Assembly (NCBI GenBank): GCA_030613375.1
Contig: JAUWMC010000001.1
Span: 1-62,379, forward strand
DNA from: Candidatus Micrarchaeota archaeon
GTDB lineage: Archaea; Micrarchaeota; Micrarchaeia; Anstonellales; Bilamarchaeaceae
Reading direction: 5' to 3'
DNA length: 62,379 bases
Shown here: one piece after another, positions 19,428-40,466 of the stretch
Layout of the letters: every line of letters begins with the position of its first letter
Position numbering within the stretch: position 1 is the stretch's first letter
Program-made: the position numbers and the translations under genes
The notes under the pieces: model-generated
Told to the model about the DNA's origin: nothing
Seen by the model: the letters and a program-made list of their open reading frames with translations, nothing else
The model's database searches: none

Positions 19428-20354
19428 TCACTCCAAACGTTCCAAATATCTGATTACACTGTCAACATACTGGTATCCTCTCTCTCTTACAACCAGTGCA
19501 TAATCCTCTGCAGTTCCCACCCGTCCTTTAATCCCAGGATCAGCGTTTCTCTCTTCAATCAGATACTTCACACCAGGAAGGAACCCTTTTTCTGCACATC
19601 TCATAAGTGCAGTTTTCCCACGGTAGGCAGCATTAACATGACCGAGAGCTTTCAACATGATCATTGCATTATCCCGCAATTCGCCCCTCTCTATTCCCGT
19701 TGCCTTTCTCCATTCTTTCACTGTTTTTGATAATTCAAGGAGCTTCTCTTTATCCGTTTTATTTTTCCACGGGTTTGTATCCTCCTTTTCTTTTTCTGCT
19801 GCATGCCATTCTCTTTCCAGTTCTCTAAGTCTGTTCTCAATGCTCCAATGGTCTGCCCATGCTGCATGCCCAGCTGCAGTCTCCCCACTATTATCCTTGA
19901 TGGTAGGGTCTGCACCCAACTCAAGCAGCCTAAATACTGCCATGGGCCAACCTACCCATGCACATAATATCAGTGCAGTTCTCCCTTTGTGGTCAACAGA
20001 ATTTACATCAGAAAGTTCATCTATCATTTTCAATATCTTTCTCTCAAACCCATGCCTTTCATTTTGCATATAGCAGTTTCTCAACTCATCAATCCGTCTT
20101 TTGAGTTCCAAGAGTATTTCCTTGTCAGTTCTCGTTTCCGCTTTCCTTGTTATCCCTTCAGGTTCAGCCTTTGCAGGCCCAACTACCTTCTCAAGAGGAG
20201 GCTTTCTTATTCCGGTCCCCGGCTTTTGATCGTGACTATGCCCAGCAGCTTTCTGTCTTTCCGCATGCCCATTGCGCAATTCCCTTTCCTTTACCTTAAC
20301 TTTCATCTGCCTTTCCCTTTTCCAAGATACCCTGCCTCTGCTTCCCTTTCCCAT
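19428..20354 (-). CDS. ankyrin-repeat protein (308 aa)
   Basis: 'DHKGRTALILCAWVGWPMAVFRLLELGADPTIKDNSGETAAGHAA' and 'YRGKTALMRCAEKGFLPGVKYLIEERNADP' are ANK repeats. There is a long basic N-terminal extension. A TATA-like 'TATATAG' lies ~25 nt upstream of ATG 20354. Confidence 0.75.
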   Translation of the reverse strand: MGKGSRGRVSWKRERQMKVKVKERELRNGHAERQKAAGHSHDQKPGTGIRKPPLEKVVGPAKAEPEGITRKAETRTDKEILLELKRRIDELRNCYMQNERHGFERKILKMIDELSDVNSVDHKGRTALILCAWVGWPMAVFRLLELGADPTIKDNSGETAAGHAAWADHWSIENRLRELEREWHAAEKEKEDTNPWKNKTDKEKLLELSKTVKEWRKATGIERGELRDNAMIMLKALGHVNAAYRGKTALMRCAEKGFLPGVKYLIEERNADPGIKGRVGTAEDYALVVRERGYQYVDSVIRYLERLE

Positions 20355-20436
20355 AAAAATCACAATTAGAGAGTACCTATATACAGCAATTCTTTAAAAG
20401 GGGTATTTTTTGGTATTTTGGGACAACAAGAATAAT

Positions 20437-21021
20437 CTAAGCCTCAGCTTTCTTCCCAGAAAAGAACTTCCCAACTTTGTAAAACATCCCTTCTTCAACC
20501 CACCTCTGCTCAAGCTTTTGGTAGGTTTCCGGATGTCCTTCATAGAGCCATGGTGCCCAGCGGGCTTCATCAAGCGCGGTTTCCAGCAGCATGTTTCTTG
20601 CCCTTACGCGCGCCCCATTATCAAGAAGTGCATATATCATTTTGGGCCTCATTCCATACCTCACCGCGAGCATAAGGGGAGTCATTAAGTTGCGGTCTCT
20701 TGCATTCGGGTCTGCACCATATTCCAGAAGGAGCCTCACTGTTCGTGTATATCCCTTTACTGCAGACACCATTAATGCAGTGTCCCTCCATTCTTCCCTT
20801 TTTTCATTGGGGTTCACCCCCTCTTTCTCAAGCCAGTGCTTTACTTCCACCACTTCTCCGTTCTCTGCTGCATGGAAGAATTTGGCTAACTTTTGGGGGT
20901 CACGGCACATTCTTTCAGGCTCCATTTTTGCAGATCTGCCGATCCTGCTAACCCTAAGGCTACGCCTGGTTGATACATTTCCAGGAGAAATTGTTTTTTT
21001 CTCTACCTTCCGCAGTGCCAT
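20437..21021 (-). CDS. ankyrin-repeat protein (194 aa)
   Basis: 'WRDTALMVSAVKGYTRTVRLLLEYGADPNARDRNLMTPLMLAVRYG...YALLDNGARVRARNMLLETALDEA' contains ANK repeats. Confidence 0.8.
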   Translation of the reverse strand: MALRKVEKKTISPGNVSTRRSLRVSRIGRSAKMEPERMCRDPQKLAKFFHAAENGEVVEVKHWLEKEGVNPNEKREEWRDTALMVSAVKGYTRTVRLLLEYGADPNARDRNLMTPLMLAVRYGMRPKMIYALLDNGARVRARNMLLETALDEARWAPWLYEGHPETYQKLEQRWVEEGMFYKVGKFFSGKKAEA

Positions 21022-23655: not shown

Positions 23656-25371
23656 ATGCGTTTCAGGGAGGTTGCAGAGGCATTCAACGAAATCGAAAAG
23701 CGCAGCGGACGCCTTGAAATGACCAACCTTCTTGCAAGAATTTTCGAAAAATCAACCCCTGAAGAAGCGGAAAGAATTGCATATATAATCCAGGGAGAAC
23801 TCCGTCCCCCATACGAAGGCATTGATTTAGGAATGGGAGAAAAATTCGTGCTGGAAGCAATCCGAAAAGCCTCAGGCTACCCAAAAAGCAAGGTTGAGCA
23901 TGAATTCGAAAAAGAAGGGGATTTAGGTTTGGTTGCAGAAAAACTCCTTGGAAAAAAGAAGCAGCAGTCTCTTTTTCAGAAATCACTCAGCATACTTTCA
24001 GTTTACAATTCAATGTTCAAGATTTCCAAAGCAACAGGCACAGGTTCGCAAACCATGAAAATTAACCGTCTTGTGGAAGTATATAATAATGCAACTCCGT
24101 TGGAAGCAAAATACGTAACCAGGTTTGTGCTAGGACAGCTCCGCTTAGGAGTCGGAGACCCAACAATTCTGGATGCCCTAAGTGTTTCACATGAAGGAGA
24201 CAAATCCTGGAGGGAACCCATAGAACGTGCATACAATCTCTCCTCAGACATCGGCTATGTTGCCCGTGTTTTTTTGGAAGACCCATCTAAAATCAAGAAG
24301 TTCAAGATTGAAGTTTTCAAGCCAATCATGCCTGCGATGGCAGAGCGTCTTGCAAATCCAAAGGAAATAATTGCAAAACTTGGAAAATGCGCAGTTGAAT
24401 ACAAATATGATGGATTCCGAATTGCAATCCATAAGAAGGGAAACAGAGTTGAAATCTATTCTAGAAGATTGGAAAAAATGACCCATATGTTTCCGGATGT
24501 AGTAAAAGCAGTTCAAAAACTCAAGCCAAAAGAAGCAATATTCGAAGGGGAAGCACTCGCATATAACGAAGAGGATAAGCGTTTCTATTCATTCCAGGAA
24601 ACAATGCACCGCAGGCGCAAATACGGCCTAGACAAAGCCGCAAGCAAATACCCCTTGTACGTATTCGCATTTGATTTGCACTATTTAGATGGGGAAGACT
24701 GCACCACAAGCCCCTACCTAGAAAGAAGAAAAAAACTGGAATCATTTATCTCCCAGAAGGGAACAATCAAGCCCAGCAAAATGCGCATCGTAAAAACAGA
24801 AAAGGAAATCAATTCTCTTTTCCAGGCAGCGCTCAGCATGAAGCTTGAAGGGATAATAGCAAAGGACCTAAAAGCTCCCTACACCGCAGGAAAAAGGAAA
24901 TTCGCATGGATAAAGCTCAAGAAATCTTATGGAACGGAAATGGACACTATTGATGCAGTAATAGTAGGCTATTATCGCGGAAAAGGCGCACGTGCAAAGT
25001 TTGGATTCGGCGGAATACTCGTAGCAGTATACAATGACGACACCACCAGGTTTGAAACAATCGCAAAAGTAGGAAGTGGTTTCACTGAAGACGAGATGGC
25101 CAAATTCCAGAAAATGCTGGAAGAAGATAAGGTCAAACGCCCACCAGTTACTTTAGATTATGAAATGGAACCTGATTTCTGGGTCCACCCCAGGCACGTT
25201 GTGGAAGTTGCATACGATAACATAACCCGTTCTCCAATCCACACTTGTGGAAGGGAAAAAGGCAAAGGTTTAGCCTTAAGATTCCCGAGAATGATTAGAT
25301 TGAGGGATGACAAGGGTCCGTTCAACGCAACCACAACTAAAGAAGTAGAAGAAATGCACAAATTTTCTTAA
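23656..25371 (+). CDS. lig: ATP-dependent DNA ligase
   Basis: It has the adenylation motif 'VEYKYDGFRIAIH', 'FEGEALAY', 'YVFAFDL', 'EGIIAK' and 'WIKLKK'. The start is taken at MRFREVAEAF, ~25 nt from a TATA-like TTTTTATTA. Confidence 0.9.
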   Translation: MRFREVAEAFNEIEKRSGRLEMTNLLARIFEKSTPEEAERIAYIIQGELRPPYEGIDLGMGEKFVLEAIRKASGYPKSKVEHEFEKEGDLGLVAEKLLGKKKQQSLFQKSLSILSVYNSMFKISKATGTGSQTMKINRLVEVYNNATPLEAKYVTRFVLGQLRLGVGDPTILDALSVSHEGDKSWREPIERAYNLSSDIGYVARVFLEDPSKIKKFKIEVFKPIMPAMAERLANPKEIIAKLGKCAVEYKYDGFRIAIHKKGNRVEIYSRRLEKMTHMFPDVVKAVQKLKPKEAIFEGEALAYNEEDKRFYSFQETMHRRRKYGLDKAASKYPLYVFAFDLHYLDGEDCTTSPYLERRKKLESFISQKGTIKPSKMRIVKTEKEINSLFQAALSMKLEGIIAKDLKAPYTAGKRKFAWIKLKKSYGTEMDTIDAVIVGYYRGKGARAKFGFGGILVAVYNDDTTRFETIAKVGSGFTEDEMAKFQKMLEEDKVKRPPVTLDYEMEPDFWVHPRHVVEVAYDNITRSPIHTCGREKGKGLALRFPRMIRLRDDKGPFNATTTKEVEEMHKFS

Positions 25372-25412
25372 TGAAAATGAGGAGGGGATGCGCCGAAACG
25401 CAGAGCCCTACT

Positions 25413-25487
25413 TGTCGCCTGCCTCACCTCCCACTTCGACCAGAAGTGGGTCGTCGCTTTGGACCTCCAAAGCGTCTGTCGCTTGCC
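25413..25487. repeat. 11-nt direct repeats (TGTCGCCTGCC / TGTCGCTTGCC) flanking two perfect 8-bp hairpins
   Basis: Hairpin 1 is CCCACTTC(25430-37)/GAAGTGGG(25443-50). Hairpin 2 is CGCTTTGG(25455-62)/CCAAAGCG(25467-74). The direct repeats are at 25413-23 and 25477-87. This is a G+C-rich island between the convergent lig and vapC stops. Confidence 0.5.
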
Positions 25488-25508
25488 AACCGATTTAATG
25501 AGCTTGAA

Positions 25509-25889
25509 TTATACGAAGTTCAGCCCCTTGATTCCTTCATATGGCTGCCGTTTTCCCGTTAGTAGCAGTGCTTTATTGGACATGCATACAGATGCAATTA
25601 CCAGCTCCCTCATCCCGAGCTTCAGGTGCTCTTCGATTGCGTGTTCGTATATTTTAGAAGCCCTCACCGCAGCTTTGCGGTCAAAGTTCATCATCTCCAT
25701 TTTTTCCACCACACCAAGGACATCCCAACGGGGAGAGCCATGTATTACCGTCAACAGCTCAAAGTAGGAAAGGGAAGTAATGCAAAGAATGTCTGCTTGC
25801 GAATACTGCCGGATTTTCTGGACCGTTTTCATCTCTCCCTTGAAAAAATCAAGGATAACGTCGGTATCCAGGCAAATCCTAATCGCCAC
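25509..25889 (-). CDS. vapC: PIN-domain toxin VapC
   Basis: 'ICLDTDVILDF' gives the first acidic PIN residue and 'SYFEL' follows; the size (126 aa) fits. It overlaps the upstream antitoxin ORF by 11 nt. Confidence 0.75.
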   Translation of the reverse strand: MAIRICLDTDVILDFFKGEMKTVQKIRQYSQADILCITSLSYFELLTVIHGSPRWDVLGVVEKMEMMNFDRKAAVRASKIYEHAIEEHLKLGMRELVIASVCMSNKALLLTGKRQPYEGIKGLNFV

Positions 25890-26094
25890 TTCCCCACCTT
25901 TTCAGGCGATACAATGCACGCCTGTCGATATCTGTTTCTTTGAGCTTTCCTGCATGGTCAAGCAATCCTTCCCGCGTGAGTTTGCTCTCGTTAAGAAGCA
26001 TGTCTATAGCCACTGAAAAGCTCATCGCATGCCTCTTTTTCAAAGTGCTCAGACGGTTATAGACATCATCACGGATTGTTATTACCCTAACCAT
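25879..26094 (-). CDS. vapB: VapB-type antitoxin
   Basis: A 71-aa ORF immediately upstream of, and overlapping, vapC. 'ITIRDDVYNRLSTLKK...SFS..I..LL' is typical of small archaeal VapB-like antitoxins. Confidence 0.65.
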   Translation of the reverse strand: MVRVITIRDDVYNRLSTLKKRHAMSFSVAIDMLLNESKLTREGLLDHAGKLKETDIDRRALYRLKRWGSGD

Positions 26095-26256
26095 GTAAAT
26101 ACATGCAGTGCATACATTTATATTCTTTCCGACGTGCTTCTAAAAATTTGTTTATTTCGCTCTAAATTTGTGTAACTCCTCCACCGACGGGAATCTCAAA
26201 CTATTTAAACAATCGTCCCCCGGTTCTACTTCACCAATCGATAGAGGATAGATAAA

Positions 26257-27336
26257 ATGGATGAACTAGTAAAATCAGTAGTTGGAGAAAAGGCGCCAGA
26301 AACATCGGTAGACGATGATATGGATAGCTCGGAGACAATCAAGATTGTCACCGTTGGTGTAGGTGGTGCAGGAAACAACACCATCAACAGGCTTGTAAAA
26401 TCTGGAGTAAAAGGCAGCCAGCTTGTCGCAATTAACACGGATAAGCAGCACCTTAAGCAGGTACACGAGAAAGCATCAAAAGTGCTCATTGGAAGAAGCA
26501 TTACCAAGGGTCTTGGTGCAGGTGGTTACCCAGACCTCGGTGCAAAATCCGCCGAAGTTGACCGCCCGCTCATTGAAAGAGAACTTGAAGGCGCACACCT
26601 TGTATTCATCTGCGCTGGTATGGGAGGAGGAACAGGAGGCGGAGCAGCCCCTATCGTTGCACAGATTGCAAAGGAACAGGGCGCAATTACCGTAGCCATG
26701 GTTACTTACCCGTTCGCTTTGGAAAGAGCAAGGAGGAAGAAGGCAGATGAGTCTATCGCAAAACTAAGGCAGAACTGTGATTCTGTAATTATCGTAGACA
26801 ACAACCGCCTTGTGCAGTTGGTACCAAATCTTCCAATGTCCGAAGCATTTGCAGTTGCAGACGAAGTTCTTGCAAGGGCAATCAGTGGACTTGTTTGGAC
26901 AATTACTCAGCCATCACTCATCAACATTGACTTTGCAGATGTTCGTGCAATCATGCAGGGCGGAGGCGTAGGATTCATCGCAGTTGGTGAAGGAAAGGGA
27001 ACTGATAAGGTTACCAGCTCTGCAGAAGCAGTGGTGAAGAACAGGCTCCTGGATGTAGACTTTGAAGGTGCAAAGGGTGCAATCATCCACATTTCCGGTG
27101 GAAGCGACCTTTCTCTTGGAGATGCAATCAAAGCCGGTGAAATCATCACCGAAAGGATGGATGCAGAAGCCAACGTAAAGTGGGGAGCCCGCATTATGCA
27201 GAACTATGAGGGCAAGCTCGAAATCGTTGCAATTGTAACTGGGGTGAAGGGCGCATCAATCCTTGGAAGGGATTATGCAAGCGAGGAAGAATCTTCAATG
27301 CCTTCATTCTCAAGCGACCTTGAAATGCTTGGATGA
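26257..27336 (+). CDS. ftsZ: cell division GTPase FtsZ (paralogue A)
   Basis: It has 'VGVGGAGNN', 'NTD', the tubulin signature '[12 protein letters not shown]' and the T7 loop '[13 protein letters not shown]'. The C-terminal tail is '[14 protein letters not shown]'. Confidence 0.92.
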
Positions 27337-27351
27337 ACGCTCCAATAAAGT

Positions 27352-27398
27352 CCCGTTTTCTTCGGAAAACGGGCAAACTCCTTTCTTTTCTATTTCCT
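27352..27398 (+). terminator. UUCG-capped 9-bp hairpin plus T-rich tract after ftsZ-A (repeat copy A)
   Basis: The stem is CCCGTTTTC(27352-60), the loop TTCG, then GAAAACGGG(27365-73), followed by CTCCTTTCTTTTCTATTTCC. Confidence 0.5.
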
Positions 27399-27460
27399 AC
27401 TTTTTAACCACAAATAACAACATTTATAAACACTCCAGCATATAATATATATGTGGTAAA

Positions 27461-28804
27461 ATGGCTAAACTAATGTTTAAGAAAGAAGAGGGAAAGGACT
27501 CGGGTACTTCGGCTCCTAAGCAACTTAAGGTGGTCCGGGTCGTCCGAGTCGCTGTCGAAGGCCCTGCTAAGAAGGGAGCCCCTGTTCAGGTAGATCCTGT
27601 TTTGCTGGGAGAAGTCAGGAAACTTAAATTGGGCATCAATTCTAATCAAGCCCGCGCGTTCTGGCAGGGAAAGATCCGTGATTCCAAGGCCGTCCCTCCA
27701 CTCACACAGGAGGCGGCAATCGGCCTGCTACTCGAAACGAAATCAGAGGACGGCATATTCATAGGCTGGTCTCTATTGCGGCAGAACCTGAAGCACATCA
27801 TTATCCCCATGGCTAACAACCCCTCAGCAGCTAAAGTGAAGTTCCTTGTCAAGGCAGTAAAAAGCAATCCACCTATAGCCGTAGCGGCATTCAAGGCTGC
27901 AGCTGCCTCAAGGCCCATATCCGCAAAAATAATCACGATTGCGAAAGAAATGAAGGCGAAGGAGGCCGAACTCGCAAAGGACGAATATACGGCGCCTGTG
28001 CTTTCTGCCGCGGTTGAATTCCTCGAAGTTGATAATCTCATGAACGGCATCGCAAAGGGCCTAGGAGAACAGCTTGCTGCGATGGACCAGCTGTTCAGCA
28101 TGTATGCGAGCGATCATGGGAAGAGGTTCGGTTACCTGGCAGATTTCCTCATACACAGGAGAGCACGGTCCATGCGGTTTGCGATTGAAGGCAAAAAAAC
28201 AATAGATCAGGAGCATGCCATATCAGTTTTGAGGCTTTTTGAGAAACACAAGATCGTAGTAGATGGGACTAAAGAGCACGTCAGGATAGCTGTTGATGCG
28301 CTTCTGGAGAAGGGGCCGGAAGGTTGGAAAGGAGTACTAGTGAGCAAATTCTCCGAACTGGCGCCGCTCATCGCCACGAGCAACTCGCTTAACAAAGGCC
28401 ATTTCCTGGCATCCGTGGTAAAAGGCTGCGAGCCTGCACTGGTGTCACGTGCACTGGATCTGGTATTTATGTTAGAGCAAGTCCCCGCAGAGGTGGTTAA
28501 AGCGGCAATGGATGTGAAAGACGACCCCAGGGTGAAATCAATATCAATTGACTTCCTCCAAACACTCCAGCTGCTCCAGGCCCTAGAAAAGAGCGGAGAC
28601 CAACAGTTCGCTGCGGCGGAGGCCTTGGTGAAGAAAGCAAGGCTCGACAAGCCAGGGTTCAGGATGGTCCTTCACGAGCTTGGCGCAGAGATGAAGGACG
28701 TATCAATGGAACCTGCAGGACCCACTCCAGAGGAAATGCAACACCAGAAGGATTCAGCTGAGCGGGTGCTCGCCATGCTTGCTAAGGCTGGCATAGATGT
28801 TTAG
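27461..28804 (+). CDS. hypothetical Ala/Lys-rich helical protein (447 aa), compositionally atypical
   Basis: Long clean ORF with no recognisable domain. By eye it is clearly richer in G+C and in CpG codons (TCG, CCG, GCG, CGG, GTC) than both flanking ftsZ genes. Confidence 0.6.
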   Translation: MAKLMFKKEEGKDSGTSAPKQLKVVRVVRVAVEGPAKKGAPVQVDPVLLGEVRKLKLGINSNQARAFWQGKIRDSKAVPPLTQEAAIGLLLETKSEDGIFIGWSLLRQNLKHIIIPMANNPSAAKVKFLVKAVKSNPPIAVAAFKAAAASRPISAKIITIAKEMKAKEAELAKDEYTAPVLSAAVEFLEVDNLMNGIAKGLGEQLAAMDQLFSMYASDHGKRFGYLADFLIHRRARSMRFAIEGKKTIDQEHAISVLRLFEKHKIVVDGTKEHVRIAVDALLEKGPEGWKGVLVSKFSELAPLIATSNSLNKGHFLASVVKGCEPALVSRALDLVFMLEQVPAEVVKAAMDVKDDPRVKSISIDFLQTLQLLQALEKSGDQQFAAAEALVKKARLDKPGFRMVLHELGAEMKDVSMEPAGPTPEEMQHQKDSAERVLAMLAKAGIDV

Positions 28805-28847
28805 ATTTTTCTTCTCATAGCTGAACGCGCATGCGTTCATAAAAAGT

Positions 28848-28900
28848 CCCGTTTTCTTCGGAAAGCGGGCAAACCCTTTTATTTCTTCTTTTCTATTTCT
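28848..28900 (+). terminator. UUCG-capped hairpin plus T-rich tract (repeat copy B)
   Basis: The stem is CCCGTTTTC(28848-56), the loop TTCG, then GAAAGCGGG(28861-69). The one change from copy A keeps a G-U pair. CCCTTTTATTTCTTCTTTTCTATTTCT follows. Confidence 0.5.
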
Positions 28901-28916
28901 CTAATGGTGACCATGA

Positions 28917-30092
28917 ATGCTTGACGGAATAGTTAAAGATGTGATTTCTGAAAAAGAGGCTCAGAAAAAAGAAGATATAGTTCCTGTTTTCGAAGAGAAA
29001 TCTGCAGAAAAAGCAGAGAATCCTCATGGAGAAATAGCTCTTCCAATTGAAGAAAAACCAAAAGAAGTTATCGAAGAGCCAAAAGAAATAGAAGAAAATT
29101 CCTCAGTTCGTATCAAGGTTATTGGTGTAGGGGGAGCTGGATGCAATAGCGTAAGCAGAATCACAAAGCAGGGAATCAAGAGCGCAAAAACCCTTGCAGT
29201 AAATACAGATAAACTTCACCTAAGCGTAATTGAAGCGCATGGAAAACATCTTCTGGGCAGAACGGTCACCAAGGGCCTGGGAAGCGGAGGAGATCCTTTA
29301 CTCGCAGCAAAGGCAGCAGATGCAGACAGAGGAGCCCTCCGAAAGATTATCGGGGAAAACGAAATCGTATTCGTATGTGCAGGAATGGGGGGCGGAACCG
29401 GAACCGGTGCCTCTCCACTAATCGCGCAGATCGCGAGGGAACAGGGTGCCACAGTAATTGGCATAGTTACTTACCCGTTCAAAATTGAGCGTTCAAGGCT
29501 TCATCGCGCAAGAGACGGATTAAAGGAATTAATGAAGCACGCAGACACCGTAATCGTAATCGAGAACGACCGCCTTTTATCCTATGCTCCGAATCTTCCA
29601 ATCGACAAAGCATTCGCACTTGCAGACGAAATTGCTTCAAAGGCAGTTCGCGGAATTTCTGACCTCGTAGTCCTCCCAAGCATGATGAATGTGGACTATG
29701 CAGATGTAAGGGCAATTATGAAAGATGGAGGGATCGCAATGATTTCTATTGGAAAGGGCTCAGGAACCGGAGTGGGAATGGTTGAAAGCGTAGTAAACAG
29801 CACAAGGAACAATCCTCTTTTGGAGGTTTCCTACGAAGGCGCAAAGGGTGCACTTATCCACGTTGCAGGTGCAAGCAGCCTCTCTTTGGGTGATGCAACC
29901 CAAATCTGCATGGGCATTTCCGAGGATTTCCACGATGACGCTGAAGTGAAAATGGGTGCAAGAATCGATGAGGATCTCTCAAACACAATAGAGGTAACTG
30001 CAGTAATTACAGGAGTGAAAGCCTCTCATCTTTTTGAGGACCAGAAACCACAGGAAGAGATGCAGAGCGAAATGCTCAGCTCCATCCTCTAG
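28917..30092 (+). CDS. ftsZ: cell division GTPase FtsZ (paralogue B), acidic/Lys-rich N-terminal extension
   Basis: It has 'IGVGGAGCNS', 'NTD', 'GMGGGTGTGASP' and the T7 loop 'MMNVDYADVRAIM'. GGTGA SD lies 6 nt upstream of the ATG. Confidence 0.92.
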   Translation: MLDGIVKDVISEKEAQKKEDIVPVFEEKSAEKAENPHGEIALPIEEKPKEVIEEPKEIEENSSVRIKVIGVGGAGCNSVSRITKQGIKSAKTLAVNTDKLHLSVIEAHGKHLLGRTVTKGLGSGGDPLLAAKAADADRGALRKIIGENEIVFVCAGMGGGTGTGASPLIAQIAREQGATVIGIVTYPFKIERSRLHRARDGLKELMKHADTVIVIENDRLLSYAPNLPIDKAFALADEIASKAVRGISDLVVLPSMMNVDYADVRAIMKDGGIAMISIGKGSGTGVGMVESVVNSTRNNPLLEVSYEGAKGALIHVAGASSLSLGDATQICMGISEDFHDDAEVKMGARIDEDLSNTIEVTAVITGVKASHLFEDQKPQEEMQSEMLSSIL

Positions 30093-30156
30093 TCCTGCCC
30101 CCTTTTAAATTTTTTCAATTATTACAGTTCTAATTCTATTCAATGTGGGTGTACTA

Positions 30157-33100
30157 ATGTTTGAATTCGACCCTCTTTACCTACTGCTGTGGATCTTCCT
30201 GGGATTCTTTATCCCGGGTGCACTGTTATCACTTGCACTGCTCAAGAAAAAAGAGCTTCCGCTTTTTGATAAGACAGCAATAGGCTTTGGTCTCGGCCTG
30301 ATTATTCCTGCATTCTTTGCATTTGCACTTTTCCTCGTTGGAGTATCATTCACATATTCAATTGCAGCGCTCTCCATCGGGCTTTTTTACCTAATTGCAA
30401 TTGCATTTTTCATAAAGGAAAAAGCCTGGGAAGGATTTTCCCTCCCAACTGATTACAAAACACTTGCACCCTCAGCCGCACTCGCACTCATACTCATTCT
30501 TGCCTTCCTTGTAAGGATGGGCACATACGGTCCTATTTTCATGGAGCTTGATCCATATTATTATATCCAACACACTACGCTCATCCTCTCAGATGGAGGG
30601 GCGCCTTTGGTGGATTATTCTGCCTGGTACCCTCACGAATCCTCCCATAGGGTCGCACCTATGAAAGCGTATCTGGAAGCCGTAACGTATGGATTGTACA
30701 ATAGCAGTACTGATTTCGACAGGTATATGCTTTCTGCGATTGCAGGAATGCTCCCTCCTATTTTTGCAGCACTCGCAGTGTTTTTCCTTTACCTATTCGT
30801 TTCATCTGAATACAAGAGAACCTATGGAATTGCCGCGGCGGGTGTTGCCGCATTTATCCCAATGTTTGTAATGAAACTTATGGCAGGAGAATCCGAAATC
30901 CAGCCATATGCCTTTTTCGGCCTTGCATTCTTCTTAGGGCTCTACGCACTTGCAGTAAAAAGAAAGGACCTTATGTTTGCAACTCTTGCAGGCCTTGCAT
31001 TTTTTGCAACCTTCTTGGGTTCAAGCTCAGCAGTCGTTCTCGTAACAACTCTCCTAATATTCATCCCATTACAAGCAATCTTCCTCTTTTTCATGAAGGA
31101 AGACCTGCTTGAAAATGCAAAAGTAAACGGAATAATTCTTCTTCTTGGCCCGGTTCTTTCAACAATATTCAACAATCTTTTCCATGAGAACTTTATACTT
31201 AATGGAATTTTCTCAGGTTATACCCTCATTCTCTTAGCTGTATACGCATTCTCGCTTTTGCTCTTGCTCTTACAGGTTCTTGCAAAGGTGTCCAAACTCA
31301 AGCTACCCATAAGCAACCTTCCAGAATTTAGCATGGATGACATGAAGAAAGTTTATCCTGCAATTGCAGGAGTTGTAGTAGTAGCCTTACTATTAGTAGC
31401 ATTCACCCCAATAGGAGACCCAATTTTCTCCATGGCAAGAAGCGCACTTGGCATAACTCAGTTCAACCAATCACTGGACCGTACAATTGCAGAGCAGGGT
31501 GTAGCAGGAGCAAGCTTCCAATCCGGCCTTGGATTCATAGGAATGGATTTCACAACCCTTCCTTCATTCGATCAGCTTCTTGATTTCTCAAATAAGAATA
31601 TCATAATAGCCGTATTCGAACTGATAGTTGGAATACTCCAGCACCTGTTTGCACTGGTTGCTATTTTCCTTACTGCAATTTCCAACTTGATCCTGGGAGC
31701 AATAGTCGGAATCCTCAACACAATATTTGGCACAGACCTCCAGTATCAAGACAAAAACAACAGCATGCTCATGGTAATCTTCTTTGGGATGTTCGTAGCA
31801 ATATTCCACTCAATTTACATAAAATTCAAAACAAAAGAACAGAGGCTTGCTCTTCTTTTTGCAGCATTTATATTCCCGATTTCAATAATTGGACTATTCA
31901 AAACCAAGTATGTAATCTACCTGGGTTTTGCAATAGCCACAGGCCTAGGAGTTATATTGGGAGAGCTTTCCCAGTTCCTTGGAAACCTGATAAACAAAAT
32001 GAAGGATGAAGAGAAGAGGAAAGTTTATGCAAATTACCTAATGCTTGGACTCACTCTCATAAGTTTCTTCTTTGTTTATTTCGAATGGAACCAGGGAATC
32101 GCAGACACACTTTTCTTTAGCTCGTTCCAGCCAAGGTTCCAAGACAATCCTGAAGCGCTCCAATCCAAGATGCAAGAGCTCTGTACACTCAGTGGGTATG
32201 CTCCCGCATGCAGTGCAGCAGAGGATCCAGTAGGTTTTGCGTCCCAGGGAATAACTTCTCAATATGACCAAACCCTTTGCGTATATTCACTTTTCTCAGA
32301 CATAACCGCACCCACAAGTAAAGAGCAGACTGCAGCATCTTTGAGATGCAACATGATGACAAACTATTGGATTGAATTTACAGAATGGCAGTTTGAAGAA
32401 TCACCAGAAGATGCAAGATTTACTTCCTGGTGGGACTATGGTCACTGGACCAACTACTTTGGGCAGAGGCCAACCGTTCTAAGGAACGACCACTCGCGCC
32501 ATGACATGATTCTGGAGGTTGCTCATGGATTCATCTATGGAACCCCAGAGGAACTCAAGAAAACAATGCAGGACTATGGTTCAGAATATGTGTTCTTTGA
32601 CCGGGAAATAATCTACAATGCCGATGGGAGTTTTGGAGGCAAATTCCATGCACTCAATTATCTCTCTTGTTCAAGGAATGAAGAAACATCCGTTGCATAT
32701 TCTCCAGGACAGTCTACCTGTGAAGCAGAACATAGGTGGGAGCAGATTGCAATACCCGCAACCCAACAACCCTGCTCAATCTCACAGCTTTCAGGAAAAG
32801 TTGGGATAACTGCATACGATGCGATATCCGGAATCCCAAAATATTGCATAGGAGAAACAACTCTCCTTACAGGGGAAACAACCGCAGCTCCGTATAAACT
32901 CGATGAAAAATACGAAAATGGTGACCTCAAGCTACACAAGGGATTCCTGAGGCAGGTTGCAGTAACACAGGATGGAACAAGCGTATACGATGTGTATTAT
33001 ACAAAGGATCAGGTCTGGATGGAAAATGGAGAAGTAAAATCAGGCTGGGAAGATCGCGCAACCAAGTTTTATGATTCCACTCTATACCAAGCTTTCGTTC

Positions 33101-33177
33101 TTGAACAGCTTGATGGGTTTACTCAGGTTTACAAAACAAGCGATGGTGCGGTGAAGCTCTACAAAATATCAGGATGA
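30157..33177 (+). CDS. aglB: oligosaccharyltransferase AglB (STT3 family)
   Basis: There are ~13 N-terminal TM helices and a soluble C-terminal domain with the 'WWDYGHW' catalytic motif. The size is ~1000 aa. Confidence 0.9.
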   Translation: MFEFDPLYLLLWIFLGFFIPGALLSLALLKKKELPLFDKTAIGFGLGLIIPAFFAFALFLVGVSFTYSIAALSIGLFYLIAIAFFIKEKAWEGFSLPTDYKTLAPSAALALILILAFLVRMGTYGPIFMELDPYYYIQHTTLILSDGGAPLVDYSAWYPHESSHRVAPMKAYLEAVTYGLYNSSTDFDRYMLSAIAGMLPPIFAALAVFFLYLFVSSEYKRTYGIAAAGVAAFIPMFVMKLMAGESEIQPYAFFGLAFFLGLYALAVKRKDLMFATLAGLAFFATFLGSSSAVVLVTTLLIFIPLQAIFLFFMKEDLLENAKVNGIILLLGPVLSTIFNNLFHENFILNGIFSGYTLILLAVYAFSLLLLLLQVLAKVSKLKLPISNLPEFSMDDMKKVYPAIAGVVVVALLLVAFTPIGDPIFSMARSALGITQFNQSLDRTIAEQGVAGASFQSGLGFIGMDFTTLPSFDQLLDFSNKNIIIAVFELIVGILQHLFALVAIFLTAISNLILGAIVGILNTIFGTDLQYQDKNNSMLMVIFFGMFVAIFHSIYIKFKTKEQRLALLFAAFIFPISIIGLFKTKYVIYLGFAIATGLGVILGELSQFLGNLINKMKDEEKRKVYANYLMLGLTLISFFFVYFEWNQGIADTLFFSSFQPRFQDNPEALQSKMQELCTLSGYAPACSAAEDPVGFASQGITSQYDQTLCVYSLFSDITAPTSKEQTAASLRCNMMTNYWIEFTEWQFEESPEDARFTSWWDYGHWTNYFGQRPTVLRNDHSRHDMILEVAHGFIYGTPEELKKTMQDYGSEYVFFDREIIYNADGSFGGKFHALNYLSCSRNEETSVAYSPGQSTCEAEHRWEQIAIPATQQPCSISQLSGKVGITAYDAISGIPKYCIGETTLLTGETTAAPYKLDEKYENGDLKLHKGFLRQVAVTQDGTSVYDVYYTKDQVWMENGEVKSGWEDRATKFYDSTLYQAFVLEQLDGFTQVYKTSDGAVKLYKISG

Positions 33178-34368
33178 GAACATATGTGGATACTGTCCTT
33201 TTACAGTATCTATCGCATCCAGTATTGTCCTTAGCTTTTCAAGCGCCAAAGTATAATCTCCCCTAGTAATCATATCATATAGTGAAAGAAGAGAGGCATC
33301 TCCCTGCCCTCCAACACTCTTCTTGAAATCAGAAACCATCTCTCTCCCTTCATTTCCAAATGAATATTTTTTTTCTCCCATTATTAGATAATTTTTTTTG
33401 CATACCTGAAGCACGAATCTGCACATGCGATCCATCCCCTCTATTTCTTTCCCAACGCTGAAAAGTTTGTTTATCTCTTTTGCCTGCATCTCCTCCAGCC
33501 CGTGGCTCTTGAAATATCCAAGGTATGATTCCATAATATATTCTCCAGGAGGGGACACAGAAGCAACTTTCTTCCTCGCATCGTACACAGTTTCCTTCAG
33601 GCCCAGCGTTATCCTATTTGACTTTTGGGAAAGATCCTGGAGCCCAAACTCAAACAAAAGGTTTGCAACCCTCGCAGCCCTTTTTTTATTCTCGAAAGTA
33701 ATCCTTGTAATTCCCCCATTTTCTACATAATCTTCGAGCTTGCCCAGCACTGCATTTCCCACATACATTCCATATATCGAAGAGAGTATGCTGGAAAGCG
33801 GCCCCCATCTAACTCCCTCTCGCATTTCTATGAGCTCTTTTGGGGTGTTTGTGCTGAAAAATGTGGGGTATTCAGCCCATGCCCCTTCAGGGGGAACTTG
33901 GAATTCTTCAGCAAACCACCGGTAATATTCTTTTTCAATATCACTCTCTTTTTGGATTACTGCAACAAGCGAATCAAACCTGAATTCCCTGTGTTCAATT
34001 CGTGCATCCCCATATTGTACAAGGTATCCGTAAAATTCCCCGAGCCTCGCATTATCCTCCGTCATCTTGCTCAGCATGATGGTCAAGTTTTCGCACCCAA
34101 TCCTTTTCGTCCCCAACCCATACATAAAGTAAATTAACGTTTTCAGGAAAAGCATTCTCTCTCGTTTTTTTGCCCTTTTGTAAGAACCCCTTAGCCATTC
34201 CTTTTCTTTTTTCCCAAAGATGGAAAAGAGATTAACCCTGTTTCGTTTGTCCCTGTACTCAATCTTTGCATCTTTACCCTTCAGCCAGGATTCGAATGAA
34301 CGTGCAAGACTCCTTGCATTCTCCCATGCAATCTCTTCCTGTGCCTTTTTGGCTTTCTTGCCATCCAT
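33169..34368 (-). CDS. hypothetical protein (399 aa)
   Basis: Long ORF. Its 3' end overlaps the aglB 3' end by 9 nt (convergent). The palindromic TATA 'TTTATAAA' lies ~25 nt upstream of the ATG. No firm domain call. Confidence 0.5.
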   Translation of the reverse strand: MDGKKAKKAQEEIAWENARSLARSFESWLKGKDAKIEYRDKRNRVNLFSIFGKKEKEWLRGSYKRAKKRERMLFLKTLIYFMYGLGTKRIGCENLTIMLSKMTEDNARLGEFYGYLVQYGDARIEHREFRFDSLVAVIQKESDIEKEYYRWFAEEFQVPPEGAWAEYPTFFSTNTPKELIEMREGVRWGPLSSILSSIYGMYVGNAVLGKLEDYVENGGITRITFENKKRAARVANLLFEFGLQDLSQKSNRITLGLKETVYDARKKVASVSPPGEYIMESYLGYFKSHGLEEMQAKEINKLFSVGKEIEGMDRMCRFVLQVCKKNYLIMGEKKYSFGNEGREMVSDFKKSVGGQGDASLLSLYDMITRGDYTLALEKLRTILDAIDTVKGQYPHMFSS

Positions 34369-34475
34369 CAGTTTTCCTACTCAGCCTTTGTTTATAAATT
34401 TTACATTTTCTTGATGGAGCGCAGATAGCTTTTTATTTATTTCCTAACTTCCCATAATCGCCTGGGTCGATAACT

Positions 34476-34562
34476 ATGGTGGCATTCGATGAAGATGATG
34501 ACTGGGAAGATGAAGATTTCGACGATGATGAATCAGAAACTAGCTCCGACGAAGACTTCTGA
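34476..34562 (+). CDS. candidate micro-protein, 28 aa, hyper-acidic (MVAFDEDDDWEDEDFDDDESETSSDEDF)
   Basis: An ATG..TGA ORF in a 297-nt gap. A TATA-like TTTTATTTAT (34431-40) lies upstream. A 7-bp hairpin plus T-tract follows directly downstream (34585-34613). Confidence 0.35.
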   Translation: MVAFDEDDDWEDEDFDDDESETSSDEDF

Positions 34563-34584
34563 ATCTTCAGCATAAAATATCGAC

Positions 34585-34613
34585 TGGCGGATCTGTCCGC
34601 CATTCTCTTTTTC
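34585..34613 (+). terminator. hairpin plus T-tract
   Basis: TGGCGGA(34585-91), loop TCTG, TCCGCCA(34596-602), then TTCTCTTTTTCC. Confidence 0.45.
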
Positions 34614-34665
34614 CCTCGTTCTCACCAGAAAGCTTTTAATTCTCTATTTAGTAATAAGTGGACAC

Positions 34666-34773
34666 GGGCCCGTAGCGCAGCCTGGATAGCGCGGCTGCCT
34701 TCTAAGCAGTAGGTCGTGGGTTCAAAACATATTTTGGAAAAATCCAAGAAATGTGAAAGTCCCACCGGGCCCG
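34666..34773 (+). tRNA. tRNA-Arg(UCU) with a ~33-nt non-canonical intron in the T-loop
   Basis: Hand fold: acceptor GGGCCCG/CGGGCCC, D arm GCGC/GCGC, anticodon arm GCUGC-CUUCUAA-GCAGU, T stem GUGGG(34716-20)/CCCAC(34761-65). The T stem is interrupted by ~34727-34759, which itself folds (CATATTT/AAATGTG, TGGA/TCCA). Confidence 0.8.
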
Positions 34774-35051: not shown

Positions 35052-36500
35052 ATGTTCATGGAGGGCCTCAAAAAGCACGGAATACGAATCGCTCTCGATG
35101 CAGAAGAGTTCATAACTCAGCATTCCATAACTGAATCTGAAATCATATCCATAAACAAAAAGTTTATCTCCAAAGAAGATCTGGGGCCCATTCTCAAAAA
35201 GAGGGAAGAGGAAAAAGATCTCAAGCCAGAGCCCAAAAAAGCAGAGGTTTCCCTCCCCGCAGACTTCAAGCCACTTGCAAAGGAATATGGTCCAGAAATA
35301 AAAGTTCGCGAGTCTCTGGATGTAACCGGAAAATCACGCACAGAAGGGGGTGTATCTGATTTTGTAAATTATTTCCGCAACCGATATGAACGACTTTCCG
35401 CCCTTCTCCGCACCTACAGCGGCAGATATCCAGAAGCAGATTTGGAAGGAATTTCCAAGCTCGTAGGGCAGAAGGTGCGTGTAATCGTAATGGTTTCCGA
35501 AATCCGTGAAACCAAAAAAGGAAACATTCTCCTTCAGGTGGAAGACCTTACCGGCCAATTCAAAATCGTTATTTCCCAAAGAGACGAAATCGCATTTACC
35601 AAGGCCAAAAACCTTGTAAACGATGAGGTAATTCTTGTTTATGGAAAAGTTCTTCCTGCCTTTATAGTTGCGGAGGACCTTGAATGGCCAGATCTCTCAG
35701 TAACCCGTGAAAAGAAAAAGCCCGAGCGAGACCTCGCAGCAGTTTACCTTTCCGATCTCCATTTTGGAAGCAAACAATTCCTTGGTGGATACTTCAATCG
35801 TTTCACAGACTGGATGAGTGGAAGGGGCGAAAACCAGGAGCTTGCAGGAAAAGTAAAGTATGTTTTTGTTGCAGGGGACATTGTAGATGGAATCGGAATT
35901 TACCCTAATCAGGAAAAAGACCTGGATATTGTGGATGTATTCAAGCAATACGAACTCTTTACTGATTTTGTGCAAGAACTTCCGGATTACGTGGAAGTAA
36001 TCGTATGTCCAGGAAACCACGATGCAGTAAGAAGAGCAGAGCCCATGCCCGCACTTTCAAAAGAAATCCTGAATTGCGATGTCCTAAGTTTAGGAAGCCC
36101 TTCCACACTCTGCGTTGAAAACTCCGAGCATCTTCTTTACCACGGAACTTCCGCAGATGGGTGGATTGCAACCCTTTCCCACCTGAGCTATGACAAGCCC
36201 GAAAAAGTTATGGTTGAATGCCTAAAGAGGCGTCACCTCTCCCCCATGTTTGGGGGAAATGCAATCGTTCCAGAAAAGATGGACTACCTAGTAATCGAAA
36301 AAGAGCCGGATATAGTCCATTTTGGACACGTGCACAAAAATGGATATACTCGCTACCGCGATTCCCTCATAATCAATTCTGGAACCTTCCAGGACACAAC
36401 AGAATTCCAGCAAAAGCAGGGACATATTCCCACCCCTGCAAAAGTTCCAATATATGAGTTTATGCACGACAAGTTGCGCACACTTGACTTCACACGGTGA
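35052..36500 (+). CDS. DNA polymerase II (PolD) small subunit DP1
   Basis: An OB-fold region is followed by the calcineurin-like phosphoesterase motifs 'YLSDLHFGS', 'FVAGDIVDG', 'CPGNHD' and 'HFGHVH'. It lies directly upstream of DP2. Confidence 0.9.
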   Translation: MFMEGLKKHGIRIALDAEEFITQHSITESEIISINKKFISKEDLGPILKKREEEKDLKPEPKKAEVSLPADFKPLAKEYGPEIKVRESLDVTGKSRTEGGVSDFVNYFRNRYERLSALLRTYSGRYPEADLEGISKLVGQKVRVIVMVSEIRETKKGNILLQVEDLTGQFKIVISQRDEIAFTKAKNLVNDEVILVYGKVLPAFIVAEDLEWPDLSVTREKKKPERDLAAVYLSDLHFGSKQFLGGYFNRFTDWMSGRGENQELAGKVKYVFVAGDIVDGIGIYPNQEKDLDIVDVFKQYELFTDFVQELPDYVEVIVCPGNHDAVRRAEPMPALSKEILNCDVLSLGSPSTLCVENSEHLLYHGTSADGWIATLSHLSYDKPEKVMVECLKRRHLSPMFGGNAIVPEKMDYLVIEKEPDIVHFGHVHKNGYTRYRDSLIINSGTFQDTTEFQQKQGHIPTPAKVPIYEFMHDKLRTLDFTR

Positions 36501-36504
36501 AAAG

Positions 36505-39500
36505 ATGGATTATTTCGAAACACTCAGGAAAGATCTGGACCGGGTTTATACCCTTGCCCAGGAGGCCCGCAGGCAGGGCCTTGACCCTGAGAATAAGGTC
36601 GAAATCCCAATCGCAAAGGATGTTGCCGCGCGCGTTGAAGGTCTTGTAGGCCCTCGTGGAATAGCTTCCATAATCCGTGATATGGAACAAGGAGGGATGT
36701 CCCGCCCGGAAATTGCATTCAACATTGCAGAAAAGCTTGCCTCAGGTGAAATACTCCAAGGAGACAAGCGCACTCTTATCGAGCAGGCAATTCGCACAAG
36801 CGTAGGAATCCTCACCGAAGGAGTCCTCGTAGCTCCAACAGAAGGAATCGCAGATGTCCAGATAAACCAAAATCCAGATGGAAGCGATTACGTTTCAGTA
36901 TTATTTGCAGGCCCAATTCGAAGTGCGGGCGGAACCGTTGCAGCACTCAGCGTTGCTCTCGCAGACCATGCCCGCAAGAAAGCAGGAATAGGGGATTTCC
37001 GCCCCACAGAGACTGAGATCGCCCGCTATGTGGAAGAAGTAAATGTTTATGAGCACAGGTGTGTGCATCTTCAGTACAAGCCTCCGGATGAGCATGTTGC
37101 GCACATAATCCGCAATTGTCCGGTATGCATAGATGGCGATCCCACAGAAGAAGTTGAGGTTTCAGTGCATAGGGACCTGGAGCGCATAAAGAGCAACCGC
37201 ATCCGCGGAGGCGTGGCCCTTGTTACCTGTGAAGGAATTGCTGCAAAGGCACCCAAAGTGCTCAAGTTCACCAAAAAATTCGGCTTAGGGTGGGACTGGC
37301 TCCAGGAAGTAATCAAGGTAAAGAAAAAAGCCGACAAGGTTGAAATCAAGCCCGACCTTTCATATCTTGAAGGCCTTGTTGCAGGCCGTCCAGTATTTTC
37401 CTACCCCATGGAAAAAGGAGGATTCCGCCTCAGATACGGCCGCAGCCGCACCAATGGAATAATGGGCAGGAATGTTCATCCTGCTACTATGTACCTCCTT
37501 GATTCTTTTGCTGCAAACGGTACCCACGTAAAAGTGGAGCGCCCGGGAAAAGGAGCAATACTAACAGCATGCGACTCAATTGAAGGCCCGGTTGTAAAGC
37601 TCAAGGATGGCTCAGTTGTAAAAGTGAAAACTAGCCAACAGGCAGAAGAACTCCATGATGATGTGGAACAAGTTCTCTTTATAGGAGACATGCTCGTCAC
37701 TTATGGGGATTTCTACAAAACTAACCATCCAATGATGCCTGCAGGTTATTGCCTGGAATGGTGGGTGCAGGAAGCCCAGGAAGCTGGTATTGAAAATCCG
37801 CCCGAAACCCCTTCCGCAAAAGAAGCCTTCGAGCTTTCCAGAAAAAACAAAGCACCACTTCACCCGGATCACACTTACCCCTGGAATGATTCAAGCAATG
37901 AAAAGCTCCTCGCCCTTTCCACATCCCTCTCAGAAGGAATAATGAAGTTAGATGGAGGGGAAATTGTGGGTCTAGAACTTCCAACATTAGATGGAAAGGA
38001 AATCCTTGAAGAGCTCTTAGTAGAGCACAAGGTTTTGGATTCCAAAATCCTTTTTGATGGGGACTCTGCATTCACCCTCCTTTCTTCCTTTGGAATGCTC
38101 TCAGGAAGGGAAATCTCCCCACCCCCCCAGCTGAATGATGAACTCACTCCTCTCGAAAACATTAATTCCCTTTCCGAAATCACAATCAGAAACAAAAACC
38201 CCACATACATAGGCGCAAGGATGGGAAGACCTGAAAAAGCCAGGGAAAGAATGATGGATGGCCGTCCCCACGTGCTCTTTCCTACTGCAACCATGAAGGA
38301 TCGCAGCATTACTAAACGCTACAAAAGCCTCAAGGCAAGGGAAAAAGAACGCTCCATAAACGCTGATATCGCCCGTTACAAATGCACAGGATGCGGCATC
38401 ACCACGTTCTATGCACGCTGTCACTCTTGTGGAGAGGTTGCAAAGCAGGAACGAATCTGCCAGAAGTGCAGCGCAGTAACTACGGAAAAAGAACACTGCG
38501 AAATGCCCACACTCTTTCACGACCGCCGTCCGGTCCCGCTTGTAGAGATGTACGAAGCTGTAAAGAGCGAGCTCGGGTTTGCCCCTCCAGAAGTACGCGG
38601 CGTAAAAGGAATGATTAGCATGAACAAGATTCCAGAACGCCTGGAAAAGGGTTTCCTCCGTGCAAAGCACGACGTATATGTATTCAGGGACGGAACTTGT
38701 AGGTTCGATGCTACGGATGCCCCAATGACCCATTTCCGCATTTCCGAAATCGGGCAAACTCCCGAAGGAATCAGAAAACTTGGGTATACTCAGGATCACA
38801 AGGGAAAGCCCATAACAACCGCAGACCAGGTAATCGCGCTTAACTGCCAGGACATCATTATCGCCTCATCAGGAATGGACTACATGGCCAGGATGACGGA
38901 CTTTATGGATGATCTTCTTGTAAACCTTTATGGAATGAAGCCATTCTACGAAGTTCAAAATCGTGAGGATCTTTTCGGCCATTTAGTTGTGGGCCTTTCC
39001 CCGCACACTTCCGGAGGTGTTCTTGGCCGCATAATCGGATACACAGATGCAAACGTATGCTATGCCCACCCCTATTTCCATACTGCAAAGCGCCGAAACT
39101 GTGACGGTGACGAAGATACAATAATACTTTTGCTTGATTGTCTCATCAACTTCTCCCGAGCCTACCTTTCCAACCGGAGAGGGGGCACAATGGATGCACC
39201 CCTTACGATTACTCCTCAGATAAACCCGAATGAAGTGGATGATGAAGTGCATTGTATGGAAGTATTGAACAAGTATCCTTTGGAATTCTACCGCGCCTGC
39301 GAGCGCAACGTATTCCCAGGAGAAATCAAACTTAAAACAGTACAAGATCTTCTTGGGAAGGATGAAGAGTATGGAGATCTAGGATTTACTCATGATACTG
39401 AAACAATAAACGATGGCCCGATGCGGACAAGTTACGTAACTTTAGGTTCAATTCCAGAAAAAATCAAAGCAGAATTCGAGCTCCACGAAAAACTTAGGCC

Positions 39501-40342: not shown

Positions 40343-40436
40343 TAAACCACCATTATTCGAACCTACATAGTGCAGGATGTTTTTAAATGTTTTCCAGTTT
40401 CCCTCTTTCCTCTGTCCGGAGCCATATAAGGAAACA

Positions 40437-40446: not shown

Positions 40447-40466
40447 TCAACAGTCGCAATTTATTC

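Follow-up and report, generated by a model that had tools for sequence, protein, structure and literature searches.

Two ftsZ genes lie in tandem on a 62,379-nucleotide (nt) stretch of DNA from a Candidatus Micrarchaeota archaeon (contig JAUWMC010000001.1, positions 1-62,379, here called the window), which is derived from a metagenome-assembled genome (MAG), and a single open reading frame (ORF) of 447 amino acids (aa) is wedged between them. Is this middle gene, referred to as MID in the following, a division factor connected with both FtsZ proteins, or has it been inserted into a division locus? Both possibilities were raised by an initial annotation made from the sequence alone. The three ORFs lie exactly where it had placed them, all on the + strand:

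26257-27336, + strand: ftsZA, 359 aa; TIGR00065 with 381 bits, Pfam Tubulin and FtsZ_C
27461-28804, + strand: MID, the middle ORF, 447 aa
28917-30092, + strand: ftsZB, 391 aa; TIGR00065 with 359 bits, Pfam Tubulin and FtsZ_C

Our analysis indicates that MID is very probably a recent passenger, an orphan alpha-solenoid gene inserted into a tandem FtsZ2 pair that is typical of the phylum. The initial annotation had proposed to check whether relatives have the two ftsZ genes directly adjacent. This applies to the five closest ones, whose contigs were traced through the nearest relatives of FtsZ-B (loci and contigs of relatives carry L-numbers). They exhibit the order vapBC-ftsZA-ftsZB-aglB with 92-97 nt between the two ftsZ genes and without the middle gene. 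Their FtsZ-B proteins are 99% (L085), 91% (L086), 85% (L005), 81% (L087) and 66% (L006) identical to that of the window at the aa level.

L085, with a nucleotide identity of about 92% over 8.6 kb, allows the junctions to be located. Positions 1-2866 of this contig align to window 24547-27402 and positions 2788-8659 to window 28820-34690. Both alignments share 79 nt, so that the window contains a piece of the spacer in two copies and a surplus of 1417 nt:

27332-27402, + strand: spacer copy 1, degenerate; direct repeat with the hairpin CCCGTTTTC-TTCG-GAAAACGGG at 27352-27373 and a T-rich tail
27403-28819, + strand: inserted cassette proper, 1417 nt; TATA-like box TTTATAAA at 27423-27430, the 447-aa ORF and a T-rich tail
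28820-28898, + strand: spacer copy 2, near-pristine; one mismatch to L085 2788-2866

The duplicated piece begins within ftsZA, 2 nt ahead of its stop codon. What is left of the ftsZA end in copy 2 reads GC-TGA. This copy also comprises a small hairpin with the sequence TGAACGC-GCAT-GCGTTCA at 28822-28839, the conserved hairpin at 28848-28869 and a TATA-like tract TTTTATTT (28877-28884), and is followed by a Shine-Dalgarno-like GGTGA at 28906-28910. The alignment of copy 1 to the spacers of L005, L006, L085 and L086 shows two deletions, one of 9 nt in the first small hairpin and one of 6 nt in the TATA-like tract, besides about 7 substitutions; the conserved hairpin is retained. Only in the lineage of this genome would a single-gene cassette of 1.42 kb have landed in the 92-97-nt spacer, duplicating about 79 nt of it. 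A duplication of this length would fit a circle with spacer homology that integrated by a single crossover, or a repair or template-switching event, better than the action of a transposase.

In a MAG contig, an insert that is bracketed by repeats and differs from its surroundings in the GC content at third codon positions (GC3) might also be an assembly chimera joined through the repeated spacer. This is extremely improbable here. An independent Logan assembly contig (L004, SRR12623517) contains identical ftsZA-3'/MID/ftsZB-5' junctions, copy 1 is a diverged version present in no relative and hence not a collapsed repeat, and the identity to L085 stays flat up to both junctions without any drop. 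As this identity keeps up beside the junctions, we also rejected the idea that a divergent donor had supplied the insert along with the adjoining ftsZ sequence.

On the other hand, it is on direct repeats such as these (about 79 nt) that recombination acts to produce deletions, and a single spacer copy would be left, as it is found in the relatives. MID might in this case be ancestral to the clade and have been deleted elsewhere. However, this would require independent losses in L085, L086, L005, L087 and L006, whose relatedness to the window declines step by step, and at 46 more distant loci. Moreover, the GC3 of MID is mismatched to its host, and the relic of the ftsZA stop codon in copy 2 indicates that the spacer was duplicated from the ftsZA end. 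An ancestral MID is therefore regarded as highly unlikely, and a recent insertion as the better explanation.

The insert consists of a single ORF. Terminal inverted repeats and a transposase, integrase or other recombinase domain were not detected in it, and searches with MID in the viral, phage and plasmid collections (IMG/VR, INPHARED, PLSDB, PHROGs and BFVD) remained without a match. Thus, the insert exhibits none of the marks of a mobile genetic element (recombinase, inverted repeats or att sites, viral or plasmid copies). Of the selfish insertion suggested initially, the insertion is supported by the empty site in the five relatives, the duplication of about 79 nt, the foreign GC3 and homologues in unrelated contexts, whereas its selfish nature is not, there being no transposase, integrase, inverted repeats or viral or plasmid copies. 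Absence from relatives and occurrence in unrelated contexts such as viral or plasmid contigs had been named as signs of a mobile hitchhiker. These were largely found, but the contexts are chromosomal instead of viral or plasmid-borne.

With a single gene between direct repeats and a hairpin in each of them, the locus resembles an insertion sequence (IS) with target-site duplication or an integron cassette with its attC site. Unlike in IS elements, the duplication is, at about 79 nt, far above the target-site duplications of transposases, and transposase, integrase and terminal inverted repeat are missing. Unlike attC, the hairpin is a native part of the spacer in cassette-free relatives and not borne by the cassette; for this reason, and because an integrase is absent, the integron reading of the repeated hairpin was rejected.

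In the single-copy spacers of the window's clade, a small hairpin overlapping the ftsZA stop codon comes first, then a 9-bp hairpin whose loop is TTCG. These are followed by a T-rich tract, in which TTTTATTT precedes the ftsZB start by about 35 nt, and by the GGTGA motif. The pairs of the 9-bp stem are kept by compensatory changes, from G-C to A-U in L005 and L087 and from C-G to U-A in L006. This hairpin motif occurs twice in the window (27352-27373 and 28848-28869), with 0 occurrences expected by chance. More distant Micrarchaeota possess unrelated GC-rich hairpins with T-tracts after ftsZA, or very short spacers. An Rfam search of the window detected tRNAs only and nothing at the spacer hairpin; a sigma-70 and intrinsic-terminator scan, which is not built for archaea, was uninformative on the + strand. 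The hairpin may be a terminator, a stabiliser of the mRNA 3' end or a regulator.

The cassette carries signals of its own. The box TTTATAAA is located 31-38 nt upstream of the MID start codon ATG, and both this box and the MAKLM start of the protein are conserved with L003, the contig of the nearest homologue. As a result of the duplication, ftsZA retains its terminator-like hairpin and T-tract, MID gains a second copy and ends at its hairpin, and ftsZB retains its full native upstream sequence. From these signals we infer that ftsZA, MID and ftsZB would form three separate transcription units; the expression of the ftsZ genes need not be disturbed by the insertion.

Where might the cassette have come from? 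MID has a GC content of 51.6% and a GC3 of 56.2%, compared to a GC3 of 41-47% in its neighbours. The nearest homologue (P0002, L003 1982-3379) shows 69% identity at the aa and 77% at the nt level, promoter included, and is located beside genes for a rubrerythrin, YjbQ and a cation-efflux protein (CDF); the genes of L003 have a GC3 of 57-66%. In resident members of the MID family GC3 tracks that of the host. The ratio of nonsynonymous to synonymous substitution rates (dN/dS) between MID and its L003 homologue is 0.45, indicating that the ORF is a real gene under purifying though relaxed selection. Most likely, the cassette was acquired horizontally from a higher-GC micrarchaeal relative, as base composition and the nearest homologue suggest.

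The family to which MID belongs is small. Only two close homologues were detected among 5.8 billion clustered sequences, and an exhaustive HMMER search of 1.84 billion proteins yielded 49 representatives of 88-1327 aa. All named members are annotated as 'hypothetical protein [Candidatus Micrarchaeota archaeon]', and scans of metagenome contigs for MID gave nothing beyond the already known contig L090. A C-terminal module, corresponding to the last ~130-170 residues of the query, is often present in several copies (up to 7 in long members). The MID of the window is a short form within this family.

Five long forms (P0003, P0004, P0005, P0007 and P0013) were examined. Where their flanks are covered (L001, L089/90, L091, L093/94, L096 and one JGI contig), the gene is divergent from aIF5B and is followed by a HEAT-like ORF of 82-90 aa. 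P0008 has the same downstream block and an unannotated upstream neighbour. On long contigs, this arrangement is part of a conserved block which ends 5.5-12 kb away at vapBC-ftsZA. The small partner ORF (LSSKSVVERKKAIKEL...HDPSYTVRN) was observed at L001 3060-3332, L089 12283-12555, L091 5363-5617, L093 11718-11966 and L096 8237-8485. It is absent beside the short-form MID, and the genes of the conserved block were not found in the window. These contexts place the ancestral home of the family at the locus divergent from aIF5B and followed by the small HEAT-like ORF, not at the ftsZ locus; hence MID is best read as a passenger rather than as a dedicated division factor.

Searches of Pfam, NCBIfam, PHROGs and PADLOC gave no match for MID, the family profile detected nothing among the PDB sequences, and the PADLOC defence models did not match two long homologues either. 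An AlphaFold2 model based on a 31-sequence alignment reached a predicted local distance difference test score (pLDDT) of 88.1 and a predicted template-modelling score (pTM) of 0.82. Residues 1-41 are predicted to be disordered and are followed by about 24 helices in an all-alpha fold. Foldseek returned ARM/HEAT solenoids only (designed armadillo proteins, beta-catenin, importins and AP2; E about 2e-3, TM score about 0.2) and nothing meaningful from BFVD. The HEAT/ARM sequence models of Pfam did not match MID, two distant long homologues gave sub-threshold matches to HEAT and HEAT_2, and no internal repeat was found by BLASTP within the 447 aa. The confident model together with the weak structural matches suggests an ARM/HEAT-like all-alpha solenoid, i.e. 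a repeat scaffold. MID thus resembles importin-alpha, beta-catenin, AP2 and the designed armadillo proteins, its sole structural neighbours, in the predicted solenoid of about 24 helices. It differs from them in the low Foldseek scores, in the lack of Pfam or PDB sequence membership and in the C-terminal module that is the family's own.

ARM/HEAT solenoids are generic peptide-binding scaffolds. MID could accordingly be a division-associated scaffold which binds the FtsZ tails or SepF and was recruited beside ftsZ for co-regulation; its location between two ftsZ genes and the long-form homologues upstream of ftsZA in a conserved block of a sister clade would fit as well. However, the five closest relatives divide with the same two FtsZ proteins and lack MID, which has its own promoter- and terminator-like signals instead of an operon-like coupling. 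The nearest homologue adjoins a rubrerythrin gene, the conserved neighbours of the family are aIF5B and the small HEAT-like ORF instead of ftsZ, the same ftsZ spacer has taken up unrelated genes elsewhere, and the composition of MID is foreign. We consider such a recruited scaffold very unlikely, and the initially proposed division factor co-regulated with both FtsZ proteins found no positive support. That the whole family is functionally tied to the FtsZ2 machinery, the short form having been captured between the paralogues as a possible adaptor of FtsZ tails, appears quite improbable, too.

Some observations weigh against a passenger insertion. A mobility gene or terminal inverted repeat which could explain the movement was not found in the insert, and no donor exceeding 77% nt identity was detected. 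The relatives are MAGs or short contigs, and the absence of the gene refers to this locus only. In one sister clade, a conserved block holds a long-form homologue at a distance of 5.5-12 kb upstream of ftsZA. Mainly because the home block of the family also lies near ftsZ2a in this clade, we leave a slim chance for a division-related role acquired in this strain.

The arrangement into which MID was inserted is not peculiar to this genome. The initial annotation had assumed that a tandem placement of two ftsZ genes is unusual. A scan of genome contigs with FtsZ-A as query, using one genome per species, yielded 80 loci, nearly all from Candidatus Micrarchaeota (DPANN) and with a best identity of 96%; A- and B-like genes were then located by tblastn. 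Enough downstream sequence was available for 66 of these loci. The second ftsZ was found at most 500 nt downstream in 46 of the 66 informative loci, often at a distance of 0-150 nt, and 0.6-8.6 kb away in 6 loci. It was absent from the fetched flank in the remaining 14, mostly belonging to a clade whose FtsZ-A is 81-82% identical to that of the window. In this clade L014 is the sole locus showing a second ftsZ, together with aglB, 8.6 kb downstream. By its position, gene B is orthologous to the downstream ftsZ at the 46 loci. Tandem ftsZ genes are the rule in Micrarchaeota, contrary to the assumption mentioned above.

Independent inserts were observed between the two ftsZ genes of other Micrarchaeota: three toxin-antitoxin modules (Fic/Doc, ParE and NTase-HEPN) in L053 (1204-4345), a DEAD-box helicase in L025 (1065-3122), an asparaginase-domain ORF in L015 (11083-11820) and, in the 8.6 kb of L014 (11086-19683), ORFs which, read by eye, resemble housekeeping enzymes (e.g. 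NAD kinase). The unrelated inserts in the same spacer indicate a permissive site, which weakens any function inferred from position. As the spacer tolerates inserts of 0.6-8.6 kb in several lineages, co-transcription of both ftsZ genes does not seem to be needed.

Both proteins are full FtsZ, as had been stated initially. They match Pfam Tubulin and FtsZ_C, exceed the NCBIfam TIGR00065 cut-off of 295 bits and carry the G-box GGGTG[ST/G]G and the T7 loop NxDxxD by which FtsZ proteins are recognised. The G-boxes (GGGTGGG in A, GGGTGTG in B), the T7 loops (NVDYADVRAIM in B) and the C-terminal tails given in the initial annotation were all found in the translations. FtsZ-A and FtsZ-B share 44% identity over 349 aa as well as a short N-terminal peptide (MDELVKSVV and MLDGIVKDVI, respectively). 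The C-terminal peptide is SSDLEMLG in FtsZ-A and degenerate in FtsZ-B. The N-terminal extension of about 60 aa ascribed to FtsZ-B is indeed rich in Glu, Lys and Pro, but it is a spacer of about 50 aa between the N-terminal peptide and the core. Such an N-tail spacer has been described for archaeal FtsZ (Liao et al., supplement, bioRxiv 10.1101/2020.06.04.133736); B has an enlarged version.

Are the two genes the FtsZ1 and FtsZ2 of other archaea, as the initial annotation had implied? FtsZ2 proteins are characterised by the triplet DNN in the T6-H6 region, where FtsZ1 and bacterial FtsZ differ (Liao et al., supplement, bioRxiv 10.1101/2020.06.04.133736). Gene A has VDNNRL at this site, as does every A-type orthologue matched by pattern search. 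Gene B exhibits END; the references show PNE (M. jannaschii FtsZ1), PND (Odin FtsZ1) and SND (one bacterial FtsZ). The euryarchaeal best matches of A are FtsZ2 proteins. Among them, the Methanofollis ftsZ (L084) has a co-oriented ribbon-helix-helix (RHH) ORF directly upstream, i.e. the cdrS-ftsZ2 arrangement, and also contains MQTIINEAM and DNN; in the FtsZ of Methanocellales, EDFEEFG and DNN occur along with the tail IDIIR. A neighbour-joining tree (320 columns, 200 bootstraps) unites the A-type genes with the cdrS-linked Methanofollis FtsZ2, the Methanocellales FtsZ2 and the Iainarchaeota FtsZ (85% bootstrap). Gene A is 53-57% identical to these proteins compared to 38-44% for FtsZ1 references, and scores 475 bits with an FtsZ2 and 313 bits with an FtsZ1 hidden Markov model (HMM), a difference of 162 bits. 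Both HMMs are small, the former having been built from non-micrarchaeal FtsZ2 and the latter from only three references. A co-oriented RHH gene (cdrS/parD-like) directly upstream of ftsZA is absent, the divergent vapBC being located there; this is a contextual trait and optional for FtsZ2. Judged by sequence, gene A is an orthologue of the euryarchaeal FtsZ2 (ftsZ2a).

Gene B might then be the FtsZ1 of a canonical archaeal pair. Its END is similar to the xN(D/E) found in FtsZ1 and in bacterial FtsZ, a long N-tail spacer is commoner in FtsZ1, and two B-type matches are named 'FtsZ 1' by their source. However, the FtsZ1 references (M. jannaschii 1W58 and Odin 9V7V) form a separate clade with 88.5% support, which includes a third FtsZ from L042 (5086-6177) and excludes all B-type genes. 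The latter branch beside the FtsZ2 clade with a support of 49-70%. Slowly evolving B orthologues (L014, L018, L020, L036 and L073) have the DNN triplet and are 53-61% identical to FtsZ2 compared to 39-48% to FtsZ1 references. Gene B itself scores 378 bits with the FtsZ2 and 307 bits with the FtsZ1 HMM, and every B-type gene prefers the FtsZ2 HMM, by 65-147 bits.

The third FtsZ of L042, located 3.8 kb upstream of the tandem pair, is 53% identical to M. jannaschii FtsZ1. Its grouping with the FtsZ1 references shows that a genuine FtsZ1 does occur in Micrarchaeota besides the tandem pair, the L042 genome containing both. For ARMAN-2, the published count is two FtsZ1 and two FtsZ2, which also argues against B as FtsZ1, and micrarchaeal FtsZ2 has been reported to branch among Euryarchaeota. 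An FtsZ2 with an FtsZ2-derived duplicate is compatible with both reports. A canonical FtsZ1/FtsZ2 pair is thus unlikely. With moderate confidence, gene B can be considered a fast-evolving FtsZ2-derived duplicate specific to Micrarchaeota (ftsZ2b), and the pairing implied initially gives way to two members of the FtsZ2 family. This assignment of B is burdened by its own END in place of DNN, and it leans on the weakly supported base of the neighbour-joining tree (49-70%), pairwise identities and small HMMs with three FtsZ1 references.

Compared to the dual FtsZ1/FtsZ2 division system of archaea such as Haloferax volcanii, the window likewise contains two FtsZ paralogues about 44-46% identical, in each of which the GTPase core is preceded by an amphipathic N-terminal peptide with a charged spacer and followed by a short C-terminal peptide, and has SepF in the genome region (Liao et al., bioRxiv 10.1101/2020.06.04.133736; Pende et al., PMC8178401). 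Normally, ftsZ1 and ftsZ2 are unlinked, the former having translation genes as neighbours and the latter an RHH gene. In contrast, the window genes are adjacent and both score as FtsZ2 family, and the true FtsZ1-like gene seen in L042 is located elsewhere. With the cdrS-ftsZ2 operon of Euryarchaeota (Darnell et al., PMC7439475), in which ftsZ2 follows the RHH gene cdrS as in the Methanofollis locus, the window shares the orthologous gene A; instead of a co-oriented upstream RHH gene, ftsZA has the divergent vapBC.

The genes next to the tandem pair and those of the SepF locus of the window are the following:

11951-12325, - strand: SepF; PF04472 with 42 bits (cut-off 27)
12460-13644, + strand: cdc6/orc1, Cdc6 domains; head-to-head with SepF
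25509-26094, - strand: vapBC toxin-antitoxin pair; VapC (PIN domain) 25509-25889, VapB 25879-26094; Pfam PIN and VAPB_antitox
30145-33177, + strand: AglB/STT3 oligosaccharyltransferase; Pfam STT3, AglB core

The vapBC pair is divergent from ftsZA and occupies the same position in L005, L006, L085-L087 and the L001/L089 clade; aglB is kept downstream of ftsZB in L005, L006, L014 and L085-L087. SepF is located 13.9 kb upstream of ftsZA, in agreement with the 14 kb given initially. SepF and cdc6/orc1 (window 11951-13644) are separated by a spacer of 134 nt, which is a plausible replication origin site; a division gene would then be situated right at the origin. A third FtsZ-like gene besides A and B was not found in the window.

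The remainder of the window is ordinary chromosome, with thyX, aIF2-alpha, pentose-phosphate genes, DNA ligase, AglB, PolD and CysRS. Four ankyrin-repeat ORFs (Pfam Ank families) are clustered on the - strand (16246-17122 and 19428-21021), and repeat scaffolds seem to be common in this small genome. Two very large ORFs adjoin on the + strand, 40377-43898 (1173 aa) and 43927-46695 (922 aa), neither having a Pfam match at E < 1e-4. Rfam gave a weak tRNA-like match of 59 nt with 31 bits at 34666-34724 (+ strand), which was missed by ARAGORN and is 95% conserved in the relative L016 (3082-3144), and a tRNA match of 160 nt at 57390-57549 (- strand), probably with an intron within. The PolD large subunit of the relative L087 (11838-15292) contains an intein with a LAGLIDADG domain; PolD of the window is encoded at 36454-39846.

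For MID these results mean that position alone is no reason to annotate it, or to follow it up, as a division gene, the stable neighbour of its family being aIF5B. Of more lasting value, though a by-product, are the tandem FtsZ2-paralogue architecture of the Micrarchaeota and the conserved spacer hairpin; in the searchable literature, no description of this tandem trait was found. Tandem ftsZ is a conserved trait of the Micrarchaeota, apparently comprising two FtsZ2-type paralogues, and bears on the division of very small symbiotic archaea.

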